From assembly GCA_964016885.1 (NCBI GenBank), contig OZ024741.1, positions 33,046,001 to 33,110,000 on the forward strand: a stretch of DNA of 64,000 nt, read 5' to 3'. A program made the position numbers and the translations under genes. Positions 261-45,597 of the stretch are shown in pieces. The number at the start of each line of letters is the position of its first letter. Within the stretch, counting starts at the first letter, position 1. The notes beneath the pieces were generated by a model that searched no databases, had not been told where the DNA came from, and saw only the letters and a list, made by a program, of their open reading frames with translations. This stretch comes from Eledone cirrhosa. Lineage: Eukaryota.

Positions 261-469
261 AATAGTAGAACAGTGGAGGGTTATATCCGTTGTAGTAGAG
301 CACTCAGTCCATGGGACGAGTTTGCTAGAAGTAGTTCCACAACAGTTAGTTCAACATACCGAGAACAAATGTTTCACCTTACGTGGATCATCAGACCGAG
401 CTGATGATCCGCATAAGGTGAAACATTTGCTCTCGGTATGTTGAACTAACTGTTGTGGAACTACTTCTA
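261..469. mobile_element. Fold-back HHR mini-element (family 1) in (TA)n
   Basis: Inverted arms ~326-394 / 401-469 around spacer ACCGAG; (TA)n on both sides; second copy at 10188-10392. Confidence 0.8.
395..437 (+). ncRNA. Minimal type I hammerhead ribozyme
   Basis: ACCGAG-CTGATGA-tccgcataaggt-GAAAC-ATTT-GCT-CTCGGT; the opposite arm reads GAAAC-ATTT-GTT-CTCGGT, restoring the NUH triplet. Confidence 0.75.
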
Positions 470-648
470 TATATATATACATATATACATATATATATTG
501 AGTATATGTTGGTTGTTTACCGACACCTCAGTATGCAGATTGGAGCATTCGACGAAGTACGCAGGTAGGTTTGTTTACTCCGGAGTAATGTAAAATAATT
601 AAGTCAAATATGTAAAATTTGGCTTCCTTTATTATGAATTATAGATAT

Positions 649-703
649 ACTGCTATATATATTTCGGTGACAGCCATCATAGGCTGTGACCTCTTCAGGC
701 AGT
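649..703 (-). ncRNA. Hammerhead ribozyme (family 2)
   Basis: Minus strand ACTGC-CTGAAGA-GGTCACAGCC-tatgat-GGCTGTCACC-GAAA-TATATA-TA-GCAGT; helices I and II and the core are complete. Confidence 0.85.
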
Positions 704-991
704 CCGAAATGGTGTATGAAAGACAGGTACACATGTTGTTGAAGTGTGTTTTACTCCGTCAATACATCGATATGTCCAGCTCCTGGTTATGTTGTTATTT
801 CTCTGAGGAACTGGAATCATATATATATATATATATATATATATATATATATATATATATGGAAAGTTATATTTAAATTGTTGGGTTACAACTAGTAAAT
901 ATTTATAACTGATATAAAAGCACTCAACAAGTATTTGGAGTATATTTACGATATTAAATAAATGGAAACTATATTTATAAAACCATATTTA

Positions 992-1053
992 TTTCATTAT
1001 ATATATTTCAGGGATATCATATTAACAATATGTTATGCCTTCTTCAGACAAAA
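992..1053 (-). ncRNA. Hammerhead ribozyme (family 3)
   Basis: Minus strand TTTTGT-CTGAAGA-AGGCATAACATA..TATGATATCCCT-GAAA-TATATA-TA-ATGAAA; homologs at 35349 and 51422. Confidence 0.75.
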
Positions 1054-42100: not shown

Positions 42101-44085
42101 GTGGGATGGGGAAACATTTTAACAGGATGCGGTTGATGGGTTTGTGGCAAGGGTTGCCCACGTCCTGTGAAAATTTATTTTTTAGGTCATTATAGGCTTC
42201 CATAGAAACCCTTATAAGTTTAAGGTGTGGAGACGATTCTGCCTTGACGAAAGTTTTGCCCTCCGTCTCCACCTTCGGGTTTTGGGAGATGGCCTCCATC
42301 AAACTCTTGTTGTTTGTGTTGATGTATGCGTATTGTTGTTTGTGTTTCTGTTGTGTCGTTTTAGTTTGTTGTTCGTCCGGGAGTTTTCTTTTTATGGTGG
42401 GTGCTTGTGTTTGGGGTGGTGTTGGTGCTGGTTTTGCTGATAGGGGGATGTTTGACTGTGGTGTGGTTTGTGTCTGTGGTTGTGTGTTGGTGTTGGTGAT
42501 TGGAGTTTTGGGGGTTTTGTGGTGTCTCTTTTTCTGTTTTTTAGATTTCCGCGGTTCTCCCTCTTCTTCACTTAAAGAAGGAGAAGCAGCTTCATCCGTC
42601 GATGAATAATCATCGTCAGGTGTGTGGGGTAAGGGTATGTTGTGTGGTGGTGGTTTTTCGGTGTGTGTGTTTGTAGTAGTGTTTGATGGAGTGGGATAGA
42701 GTGGGGCTGTGTTCTTCAGGGGTGTTGTCTCTGTTTTTTCTGTTATTGGTTGAGTGGCTGTTTGTTTTGGTGTGGTTGTTCGTTTTGTCTGTCGTTTTAC
42801 TTGTGGTGGTGGTGATTGTTTCGGTGTTGGTGTTGGTAATAATGTATTTTGAATGATGTTGTTGTTGTGTGACAAGAGGCTTTTAGGTGTGCGGTGCTAC
42901 CACAGCGAAAGCAATGAAACTTTCGTCCTTCTACCGAAATGTCTATTTTGTTGTTATTATTGATGACGACTCTTTCGGGTATTTTGGAGATTCTCTCCGG
43001 TTTCATTTGCAACAGAATCTTCAAATCTGTACCCGCCCACCTTTGTCGAATAGATTTTCGTATCGAAAGAATCATATCAGTTTCTGGCTCTACGAAGCCA
43101 GCCAAGATCCACCAGATGTTAATGTTTGGAGGTATGTTTTTTATTTTTATTTTTTGTGTCCTTTTTCCATGTATGTAGGGAAAAAGGTGTATGCTTTTGA
43201 CACCATTGGTGTCACAGAGTGTTTTTGGGCGAGTGCCTCGCTTTTAAACAGTACGGAAACACTTCCGTACTGTTTTCCTCGCTGGAGAAAATCGACATTT
43301 GCTAGAATTTCCTTGAAAGTATCTTCTATATCTGCTTGGCTAACAAATGTCGGCTTTCTTGTGGAATTTGACACAGTCCTAAAGGTGACTAATCTGCGAA
43401 TTGTGTCTTCCTTTATTTCAAGGGGTGAGTTAATTCTAACCCCACCTCTTTCTTCAAGATTTATAAAATCTTGTTTTTTGTTCACTGTTTCAGCGAAAAC
43501 ATTTTTTTTTGTGTGGTGTTGCTGTTGTTGTTGTTGTTGTTATCGTTGTTAGCCTCGGTGTTGGAAATCTCAGTTCCTTGTCGAGGTGAAACATTATGTG
43601 TAGATGTATCTGTAGAGTTGTTGATGTCTTTTTAATGTGTATGTATGTTAAGGGATTTAATTCCTGTGTTTTCCTCTGTGTTATTGTTATTTTTCTCCAC
43701 TTTGACGGTAGAAATTTTAAAATCTTCAAGTGGTAATACTTTTTCTTTTGTTATCTTTGTTGACAGTCGTATCTATGGCGACGTCCATAGTAGCAGAAGC
43801 AGATATAACGTTAATATCTGCCTCTTTCTCTCTCTTTTCTCTATTAACGTTCTCCAGCGTTCTTGTGTTGCTCAAGTTATTTATTTTGTAAAATCTTATA
43901 TTTTAAAACACATTTTTAAAATAAAATGTTCGCCCCTGCAGGGTCGAAAAATGGGATTACCACCCAGCTGACAATTCAGCTTGGGGGTTAATCTAGAAAA
44001 TGTTATGTTTTTTCAAACAATTAGTTCGGTTTTTTGTATAGAAATAAACAAAAAAGCTAACCGGCGATGTTCCACGCGTCAGACA
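39187..44085 (-). mobile_element. Tx1-like LINE, near full length, RT core deleted
   Basis: ORF1 with CFRCGSTAHLKASC knuckle (~43750-42036); ORF2 from ATG 41994 with APE motifs (NVRGL, GDWN, YLDR); (TATC)n on both sides. Confidence 0.9.
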
Positions 44086-44241
44086 AAAAGAGAGATAGAT
44101 AGATAGATAGATAGATAGATAGATAGATATAAAGATAGATAGATAGATAGATAGATAGATAGATAGATAGATAGATAGATAGATAGATAGATAGATAGAT
44201 AGATAGATAGATAGAGGTAGAGAGATAGATAAATAGATAGA

Positions 44242-44588
44242 TAAATTTCTTTATTAGCCACAAGGGCACAAAAGAATGGGACAAATACAAATGGGGGTTT
44301 ACATACAGGTATATGAAAATAAAACTATTAATACAATAACAAATAACAATTGAAATCCCCAATAGGGGGAGGCGTTACACAGGGGTTGTACACACTCCGA
44401 ATAAATGTGCAACCCTCATCTCCAGGAGCACCAAGAGTGAGTACTCCCTTCCTCTCTTCCTCTTTTTCCTCAACCTACAGGCTTATATAGAGAGAAGGCC
44501 CAACCACTCGGGCTATCTTTGCACATTCACCCACCTTTTATAAAATTTGATGGGGTACTGCACCCCTCTCTCCATCCTGATTCTTCTT
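44242..44588 (-). mobile_element. Tx1-like LINE 3' fragment
   Basis: ORF2 end and 3' UTR homology; followed by (TATC)n. Confidence 0.8.
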
Positions 44589-45597
44589 CAACACTGACAA
44601 AGGAACGCTGTACTAGTTTCAAGCTTATTAGCTAACGTCAGCACCGTATACCTTCCTGCCAGATGATTGAACGTCTGAAAGTATATACTTTCCTCATGCA
44701 TATTAACGGCTGAGCAGCCTAATTTGTTTCATTTTTTCCATTTATCGTTTTCGTGGCGCCCGGCCGATTAACTCACTCGATATGCAAATTAGGCTGCTCA
44801 GCCGTTAATATGCATAAGGAAAGTATATACTTTCAGATGTTCAATCATGTGGCAGGAAGGTATACGGTGCTGACGATAGCTAATATGCTTGAAACTAGTA
44901 CATCGTTCCTTTGTCAGTGTTGAACAAAAGGGCAACGATGGTTGCTAAACACTGTACGGCTTAATTCGGGATGTTTGTTTACAAACAAACCGAGCATTAT
45001 AATAAATGTTCGGTAAATCCATACGTACATATATATATATGTGTACATGTATGTATATATATATACTATTGTACGTCTGTATACATATATGTATGTACGT
45101 ATACATACTTATATTTAAGTAACAGCCGTACTAAGAGTGAGAAATAAAATTTCGTTTCATTTTTTCCATTTTTCGTTTTCGGTGCGCCCGGCCGATTAAC
45201 TCACTCGATATGCAAATTAGGCTGCTCAGCCGTTAATATACATAAGGAAAGTATATACTTTCAGACGTTCAATCATCTGGCAGGAAGGTATACGGTGCTG
45301 ACGATAGCTAATAAGCTTGAAACTAGTACATCGTTCCTTTGTCAGTGTTGAACAAAAGGGTAACGATGGTTGCTAAACACTACGGCTTAATTCGGTATGT
45401 TTGTTTACAAACAAACCGAGCATTATAATAAATGTTCGGTAAATCCATACGTACATATATATATGTGTGTGCATGTATGTATCTATATACATACTACTGT
45501 ACGTATGTATACATATATGTATGTACGTATACATACTTATATTTAAGTAACAGACGTACTAAGAGTGAGAAATGAAATTTCGTTTCATTTTTTCCAT
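44588..45597 (+). mobile_element. Retrozyme-like element: two 428-bp tandem units plus an inverted partial unit, one HHR each
   Basis: ACGGTG-CTGACGA-TAGC..GCTT-GAAACTAGTA-CATCGT at 44864-44906 and 45292-45334; inverted copy at 44588-44726. Confidence 0.85.

Follow-up and report, generated by a model that had tools for sequence, protein, structure and literature searches.

Within a 64,000-nt stretch of the Eledone cirrhosa genome (GCA_964016885.1, contig OZ024741.1, positions 33,046,001 to 33,110,000; hereafter the window), an earlier note had marked ten fold-back palindromes in which a hammerhead ribozyme, or one half of it, always reads away from the apex. The question raised by this locus is how such a fixed polarity arises when Penelope-like elements (PLEs), to which the repeats were ascribed, insert into the genome. 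Outward polarity itself is not new, and the ribozyme serves only as an orientation marker. The accessible text of PMC3846280 gives head-to-head as the most frequent PLE arrangement, Fig. 2 of PMC8557442 draws it with a one-sided tail, and the (TA)n target, the polarity and the one-sided tail are published PLE features in the available portions of both papers, which state the origin of tandem and inverted PLE ends as open. The architecture described here is a known one, and the gain is a modest mechanistic one.

Palindromes and hammerheads of the window

All ten palindromes were found where they had been placed, with 84-98% identity between the arms, and all of them belong to hammerhead-bearing repeat families with outward-reading arms (Table 1). 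Complete hammerheads occur on the + strand in right arms and on the - strand in left arms, while the arms at 6810 and 22001 hold the 3' half only. The missing 5' half is found upstream and in the same sense in other copies, namely in 12 of 14 non-window copies of family 22001 and in 12 of 15 regex matches with the U3-A8 core for family 6810. The extra tail said to mark one arm is present at nine of the ten palindromes and is lacking at 44588, where the left arm breaks off within the unit and its right counterpart is a 428-nt tandem. Apexes are unequal between the two pairs of family 10188. The PLE remnant at 32500..33855 carries the ORF and the hammerhead in one sense, so that hammerhead sense is ORF sense. 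The pair at 863-1126, an eleventh of the same kind, is absent from the original list.

Table 1. Head-to-head pairs and related copies in the window (signs give strands; complete hammerheads follow the type I descriptor)
Positions	Family	- arm or copy	+ arm or copy	Hammerhead and flanks
266..469	10188	tail-ended (~266-394)	short-ended (~392-469)	cores -394 and +401 with damaged stems; (TA)n both sides
863..1126	35082	tail-ended	short-ended	complete -1047 (tail-ended arm)
1210..1539	1213	left arm, ends at (GA)n	right arm with tail, ends at (CA)n	whole with decayed C4-type core (left); 3' half (right)
5845..6202	5845	short-ended	tail-ended	complete with U3-A8 core in each arm, -5953 and +6032
6733..6927	6810 (Hydra-type PLE)	tail-ended	short-ended	3' half only
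10184..10388	10188	short-ended, beside (GA)n	tail-ended	complete +10262
16450..16585	1213	unpaired truncated copy		flanked by (GA)n and (TC)n
17901..18655	18033	tail-ended	short-ended	complete with C4-type core, -18117 and +18569
18741..19161	18772	tail-ended	short-ended	complete -18925 and +19008
21865..22188	22001 (young)	tail-ended	short-ended	apex within stem II
32500..33855	32738	PLE remnant, 5'-truncated, internally deleted: RT motifs, endonuclease end, 3' region		core -32738 in ORF sense; ends at (TA)n
34994..35459	35082	tail-ended	short-ended	complete +35355 (short-ended arm)
44584..45597	44588	inverted arm, cut short	two tandem 428-nt units	complete +44870, and +45298; ends at (TA)n

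The motif calls depend on our own type I descriptor, relaxed to admit variant cores and a short stem III, and on family conservation, since none of the 120 Rfam matches at E<=1 is a hammerhead; these matches were microRNA-like ones on TA hairpins only, all under the gathering score. The descriptor gave 66 matches in 800 kb of unselected DNA as against 0, 1 and 1 in three shuffles. Six predicted hammerhead monomers fold weakly (z from -2.0 to +1.3). Minimal PLE hammerheads have been described as dual motifs on opposite strands 100-700 bp apart (PMC4209133), and the present ones are alike in type I, in the palindromic stem III and in the U3-A8 variant; they differ in that C at core position 4 is the norm in two families (19 of 21 matches to the 18033-type pattern). 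Such a U4C change is a natural and weaker hammerhead variant according to the accessible part of PMC3088659. No pile-up of truncations at the ribozyme cut site was seen by eye among 20 pairs of family 10188, whose starts are biased by the queries.

Orientation across the genome and PLE identity

Across the 3.0-Gb genome, orientation is not random. Copies of 11 families form 134 head-to-head, 6 tail-to-tail and 23 tandem neighbouring pairs, counted after the removal of 10 loci that overlapped the window or one another; the 134 include three duplicates (L216, L179 and the second L054 pair) and 11 window pairs. The 80 unselected 10-kb stretches alone hold 39 head-to-head and 2 tail-to-tail pairs, and among junctions within 30 nt the ratio is 120 to 1. 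"Always" outward is slightly too strong genome-wide, given the 6 tail-to-tail neighbours, all of them spaced by (TA)n or other elements, and a few inward cases: at first scoring 6 of 96 de novo palindromes read inward, two being library-flank artefacts and one ambiguous. Family 44588 contributes 16 of the 23 tandem pairs, and partial tandems forming pseudo-LTRs are present. Families 35082 and 18772 rest on by-catch copies; searches of the genome with their arms gave none, very common words being skipped.

Two independent insertions, in opposite directions into the same (TA)n run, would predict equal shares of tail-to-tail and tandem pairs, TA at the apex, mixed ends and unrelated subfamilies. 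The families do pile up in common TA runs, and the 6 tail-to-tail pairs resemble products of such events, but for the main class this origin is very remote, as it is contradicted by the junction counts, by the pairing of ends and by the variants common to both arms that are described below.

The PLE origin put forward for the repeats is borne out by ORF remnants in the ribozyme sense in three families. In these 3 of the 11, outward corresponds to the sense of the PLE endonuclease ORF: family 6810 has RT and C-terminal GIY-YIG-like frames at L226 and L234, and in families 10188 and 32738 the endonuclease lies upstream, in sense. The coding frames are all broken, and the Pfam matches are weak and under cut-off (GIY-YIG, E=0.012 in family 6810; RVT_1, E=0.00085). 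Among members of the Atlas neighbours of family 6810 (0.95-0.97), 22-28% carry GIY-YIG or 17-66% HTH_animal, and a PDB sequence search with the endonuclease frame gave no match. By sequence, the three families appear to be endonuclease-bearing PLEs, with a single ORF for RT and GIY-YIG that precedes the terminal repeat, and in all three the hammerhead lies in the terminal repeat in the ORF sense. As in PLEs, the 5' end carries an inverted copy that is 5'-truncated, and one of the two ends has a tail. That 5'-truncated ends meet at the apex, as had been claimed, agrees with the family-wide pair layouts and with the ORF sense.

Family 6810 further seems to carry motifs of the Hydra clade (PMC8557442), to which it is alike in DKT, the CxCX5C linker, the C-terminal GIY-YIG-like domain, the short element and the (TA)n target. 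It differs in having RWR in place of RWK (motifs read by eye) and a hammerhead that is not canonical, its core being U3-A8 and its stems II and III long. The CxCX5C linker is also found in family 10188; family 32738 looks different. The Naiad clade, with an N-terminal endonuclease and no canonical hammerhead, was considered and rejected, as the endonuclease is C-terminal in the three ORF families and hammerheads are present. Similarly, a MITE or palindromic DNA transposon, with fixed length and apex and symmetric termini, does not fit copies whose apex varies by hundreds of bases and whose ends differ.

Two fixed 3' ends and the origin of the pairs

The 3' ends form two peaks in 8 of the 11 families, an inner, short end and a tail end. 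As for the exceptions, family 1213 has too few copies and the references of families 44588 and 32738 stop at an internal TA run. What appears to be new is the pairing of unlike ends, a short-ended arm being joined to a tail-ended one in nearly all pairs: in the 8 families this holds for 89 of 104 pairs (L216 left out), against 2 short+short, no tail+tail and 13 unclassified. Tails measure about 31-139 nt, whereas 30-40 bp are given in the accessible text of PMC3846280 and PMC8557442; at L234 the tail continues into the 5' region and the ORF start. The insertion flanks are microsatellites, (TA)3 lying <=25 nt from the outer ends on both sides for 76 of 107 pairs and on one side for 27 (background 11%), and the ends sit at short TA-like element words that become TC/CA words beside (GA)n/(CA)n. 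The apex, in contrast to the ends, is spread over hundreds of bases among copies of one family and can lie in the tail. Copies partnerless within 400 nt number 62 with short, 84 with tail and 27 with other ends, a count that is inflated because several of them (L226, L231, L232 and L236) have a partner several kb off.

The palindrome is likely (probability about two in three) to represent two 5'-truncated PLE 3' ends joined head to head in (TA)n or a related microsatellite by a single insertion event, with both nicked target strands priming reverse transcription. One strand would prime at the inner fixed site of the family and the other at the tail end; the two cDNAs would halt at variable points, and their 3' ends would then be joined, sometimes with the help of a few bases of complementarity, before fill-in synthesis. 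Outward polarity would be a necessary outcome, since both 3' ends of the target become linked to 3' ends of the element. Overlapping arms from one event may stem from two repeats of a tandem transcript or from two RNAs. Judged from old genomic copies, the single event, the priming by both strands and the joining step are each likely. Junction microhomology is modest and counts against the proposal, an overlap of >=3 nt being present at 24 of 80 junctions by BLAST ends and at 4 of 17 strictly anchored ones.

The arms differ from each other by 6.1% and from other copies by 10.0%, the former being lower in 79 of 98 pairs. This likeness, together with linked subfamily conflicts in only 2 of 88 pairs, points to one source for both arms (L216 and L179 are left out of both sets, and the second L054 pair also from the latter). 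Two source RNAs were rejected on the same conflict count, which has low power on short arms. Gene conversion between the arms could be an alternative reason for their likeness.

Two mechanisms had been proposed for the polarity, priming by both target strands and a snap-back of the cDNA; the former is favoured, and the latter in its simple form is disfavoured for the main class. In a DNA snap-back, a tail-primed cDNA would fold at its truncated 3' end and be copied back, and the endonuclease would cut the inner site. Variants common to both arms and short complementary words at some apexes are in keeping with it, and in PMC8557442 the tail is explained by an intermediate that the endonuclease resolves. 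However, the loop should then always fall on the tail arm, whereas the 80 short+tail pairs with a spacer of <=60 nt show no such rule: in 34 the 5' extent is greater on the short arm, in 26 on the tail arm, and in 20 on neither, i.e., the short arm is the longer in 34 of 60 unequal pairs (p=0.37). In 6 of the 80 the arms have no common sequence, and hence neither can copy the other; short-ended copies also exist without a near partner. Later deletions at an unstable apex could blur the picture and yield both non-overlapping and short-arm-longer pairs. True fold-backs are suggested by the 2 short+short pairs and by L054, a 5.4-kb fold-back with a tail-less apex at its centre and 6 substitutions in 2,269 aligned nt, which is possibly a minority route or an assembly join. 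On balance, snap-back is unlikely, and twin priming is favoured by either arm being longer, by the non-overlapping pairs and by the shared subfamily variants.

Self-priming of antisense RNA is a further candidate. In the model of PMC3846280, which its accessible text sets out for rotifer PLEs whose inverted junctions contain palindromes, the antisense RNA folds at a 3'-end palindrome and primes synthesis, giving head-to-head repeats. Apexes are indeed concentrated at some of the natural hairpins close to the hammerhead, but this clustering is partly ascertainment by the queries. Moreover, apexes so widely spread are not expected from an RNA hairpin with a fixed end, and non-overlapping arms and two target-matched outer ends are left unaccounted for, so this route is judged highly improbable. 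Twin priming and self-priming differ in what they predict for two countable features, the short+tail rule and the non-overlapping pairs.

The palindromes might also be library or assembly fold-back chimeras, and L054 could be such a join. The 23 runs listed are assembled contigs or reduced-representation reads; of four runs compared with the palindrome at 17945-18650 two were blank, and no listed contig spans the apex with 31 nt on each side. Nevertheless, arms are identical in only 9 of 98 pairs and differ on average as stated above, they end at two family-specific sites with different flanks, and an artefact would ignore ORF polarity; chimerism is hardly credible as a general explanation.

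Known systems and dsRNA potential

Twin priming is familiar from LINE-1, where the second target strand primes internally on the RNA and a 5' inversion results, with no sequence duplication and at variable internal sites. In the present pairs, by contrast, the second of the two sites does not vary, and most pairs have overlapping arms. The published PLE insertion unit (PMC3846280; PMC8557442) is alike, in its accessible descriptions, in the inverted 5'-truncated copy directly at the 5' end, the hammerhead in the terminal repeat and the partial tandems. The copies described here differ in being mostly stubs without an ORF and in being very dense (96 palindromes in 800 kb). In the same texts, antisense self-priming or endonuclease resolution is proposed rather than a short+tail twin-priming rule, and a search of the literature on Penelope twin priming and inversions found, by title, none on the PLE mechanism.

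Priming from both strands fits the in vitro data on the PAc protein of green anole Poseidon, which, in the accessible text of PMC11167929, nicks and extends both target strands and starts reverse transcription at two sites bounding the tail. The AT-rich target and the tail at the repeat-ORF junction are shared. In contrast, the PAc starts are not homologous to the cut DNA, whereas the ends here sit at short target-like words, and the available text draws no link to head-to-head genomic pairs. The two PAc start sites did not differ between strands in vitro (PMC11167929, accessible text), and hence the strict short+tail rule does not follow from PAc alone.

Read-through transcription of the palindromes would give dsRNA hairpins, which are structurally plausible as putative ADAR or Dicer substrates. 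Exceptional dsRNA potential and hyper-editing have been reported for octopus (PMC5625713), and in the octopus, Penelope and editing literature no title was found tying octopus dsRNA to PLE pairs. A wider reading, which is conceivable though doubtful, is that PLE integration is two-ended and asymmetric, one particle priming two strands at two fixed RNA sites with hairpins as its normal product, and that at least about 100,000 hairpins would constitute the main source of near-perfect dsRNA, explaining both octopus traits. Palindrome arms make up about 3% of the sampled 800 kb, and 47 of the 96 de novo palindromes (about half) are assigned to hammerhead families; at this density the units are candidates for supplying ADAR or Dicer with substrate in bulk.

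Outward polarity of the hammerhead motifs

Fold-back palindromes in the window had been described in the earlier note as always carrying the ribozyme in the direction away from the apex. All ten palindromes, named here by their start coordinates, were found with arm identities of 84-98%. A type I hammerhead descriptor with strict settings picked up some of them but not all. Once it was relaxed to tolerate a U3-A8 pair and a C at position 4, the window total was 15 motifs; 800 kb of unselected genome had 66, and shuffles gave 0, 1 and 1. With the relaxed descriptor, complete motifs lie in both arms of 5845, 18033 and 18772, and in the right arm of 10188, 35082 and 44588. 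Both arms of the 326 pair retain hammerhead cores, although their stems are damaged. As to 1213, 6810 and 22001, longer copies show the absent half upstream and in the same orientation. Hence, the motif placement and the longer copies bear out the claim for ten of ten palindromes. Since no hammerhead was found with Rfam and six hammerhead monomers folded weakly, these are to be regarded as motifs and not as proven ribozymes.

Its repeats mark the host as an animal, and the TA-rich repeat landscape suggests an octopod mollusc. The 3.0-Gb assembly (1,796 contigs, the window being on C2) was represented by 80 unselected 10-kb stretches at round-number positions on 13 contigs, an 800-kb sample that is small and biased toward large contigs. 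Further family copies were gathered by genome search, and natural reference copies of 11 families were used for mapping. Among 97 de-duplicated palindromes detected de novo, 13 had a full motif, outward in 13/13. When the arms of 96 palindromes were matched to motif-bearing families, 47 palindromes proved outward and 6 inward, the other 43 being unassigned. Two of the inward ones are matches to flanking DNA in the assignment library, one is a self-complementary TA-rich piece, one is a portion of a large fold-back, and in two the tails face each other across TA or another element. Neighbouring pairs of the 11 families were head-to-head in 134 cases, tail-to-tail in 6 and tandem in 23, with 120 head-to-head versus 1 tail-to-tail at junctions of <=30 nt, and 39 versus 2 in the unselected stretches only.

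The outward polarity is thus real and genome-wide, the rare exceptions having the look of separate insertions, but it is mostly not new, being a known trait of Penelope-like elements (PLEs) from several descriptions. Passages of PMC8557442 describe an inverted 5'-truncated copy abutting the 5' end, with a 30-40-bp tail at one end, and those of PMC3846280 name head-to-head as the commonest PLE arrangement, with self-priming on an antisense template put forward for it. Likewise, part of PMC4209133 records the U3-A8 core as well as dual hammerheads that lie on opposite strands, and according to sections of PMC11167929 a PLE protein cuts and extends both target strands and starts at two sites bounding the tail. 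The passages of a retrozyme preprint (10.64898/2026.07.22.740005) did not deal with inverted pairs.

Paired short and tail ends

The added value lies in a rule on 3' ends and its bearing on an open mechanistic question. Eight families have two sharp 3' ends each, 31-139 nt apart, an inner short end and one at the end of the tail. One of each was combined in 89 of their 104 pairs, with 2 short+short, 0 tail+tail and 13 unclassifiable. At one locus (L234) the tail runs on into an ORF start, and the tail end is therefore internal to a longer RNA. (TA)n abuts both outer ends in 76/107 pairs versus an 11% background, and the outer ends coincide with, or are displaced to, words that match the neighbouring microsatellite. 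The comparison of divergences suggested in the earlier note found the arms closer to each other (6.1%) than to other copies (10.0%), the arm-arm value being lower in 79/98 pairs; the nearest other copy differs by 4.3%. Linked-variant conflicts between arms occurred in 2/88 pairs.

Of the two mechanisms offered previously, priming by both target strands is favoured over simple snap-back. In the latter, one arm is copied from the other, and the template must include the whole of the copy. Against this, the short arm, despite having no tail, extends further 5' in 34/80 pairs and the tail arm in 26/80, and in 6/80 the arms have no common sequence. The simplest reading of these sequence patterns is twin priming, whereby both arms would be laid down in a single event from one source. 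Apex deletions and arm conversion taking place after insertion could mimic parts of the pattern expected from twin priming. Junction microhomology is modest (24/80 pairs; 4/17 strictly anchored junctions). Four long head-to-head pairs (L226, L231, L232 and L236), with arms 1.3-3.6 kb apart, are still short+tail, and one long pair (L227) is short+short.

The possibility that the palindromes are fold-back chimeras is spoken against by identical arms in only 9/98 pairs and by the asymmetric, family-specific ends, which a library fold-back cannot yield. A large inverted duplication at locus L054 has 2.7-kb arms that differ by 6 substitutions over 2,269 aligned nt, and it mirrors several unrelated neighbouring elements besides the PLE. 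The duplication either arose by true DNA fold-back or reflects a join made during assembly.

Family identity, hairpins and other repeats

The ORF motifs of family 6810 agree with those given for the Hydra clade in passages of PMC8557442, and the (TA)n target is common to both. An endonuclease frame lies upstream, in sense, in families 10188 and 32738. The ORF link was made in three of 11 families, eight being without an ORF tie, and profile matches for PLE domains gave weak support. Family 44588 resembles a non-LTR retrozyme in its ORF-less hammerhead tandem units, but it makes head-to-head pairs too (25 found).

Two core variants recur. C at position 4 is usual in the 18033-type (19/21 matches to its pattern) and 1213 families, with stems intact; U4C is said in part of PMC3088659 to lower hammerhead activity. 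The U3-A8 variant occurs in two unrelated families, including 6810. In the hammerhead of 6810 the stem II region spans 56 nt, and stem III is 4 bp long with a loop of 9 nt.

The 18033 pair (621 nt) is predicted to fold into a single hairpin at -470 kcal/mol versus -118 for shuffles. Palindrome arms occupy 24,138 of the 800,000 sampled bases, and simple scaling of this small sample, which favours large contigs, gives ~360,000 palindromes in the genome, about half assignable to these families. For octopus, passages of PMC5625713 report hyper-editing and an exceptional potential for dsRNA, with no repeat source assigned; for lizard, they report that Penelope is heavily edited. Passages of PMC9989829 contained no mention of Penelope. 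A link of PLE hairpins to dsRNA potential and editing is plausible.

The short head-to-head pair at 31790-31880 has a copy in L049 that follows (TA)n and has an identical starting point. In the unpaired family-1213 copy, the microsatellites themselves form inverted arms because (GA)n and (TC)n flank opposite sides.

Features by position (window coordinates unless another locus is named)
Feature	Position	Strand	Remarks
Minimal hammerhead	34011	-	2-nt stem III; upstream of 33-kb remnant
PLE remnant	32500-33855	-	order RT, endonuclease end, hammerhead core, (TA)n
Second PLE-like RT remnant	46900-49200	-	
Family 44588 units	44721-45601		428-nt tandem units, one hammerhead each, no ORF
C at position 4, 18033-type	18569; 18117	+; -	
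U3-A8 variant	5953; 6032	-; +	
U3-A8 variant, family 6810 copy	L135:1616		
5.4-kb inverted duplication	L054 51-5407 (G000:C2:80,000,051-80,005,407)		centred on tail-less PLE head-to-head apex
Other palindrome type	22254-22345		fixed ~53-nt unit, constant size at many loci; no hammerhead seen in unit
Short head-to-head pair	31790-31880		(TA)n at apex itself; left-arm tail
Inverted pair	24209-24618		93%, 147-nt spacer, between (TA)n runs; no hammerhead found in pair
Unpaired family-1213 copy	16396-16640		(GA)n one side, (TC)n other
Presumed Helitron	25281-29471	+	broken frames resembling replicase-helicase, named from motifs
Broken elements, presumably LINE-like by their motifs	36536-42896; 55972-59714; 60211-63793	-; +; +	endonuclease and RT frames, upstream ORF
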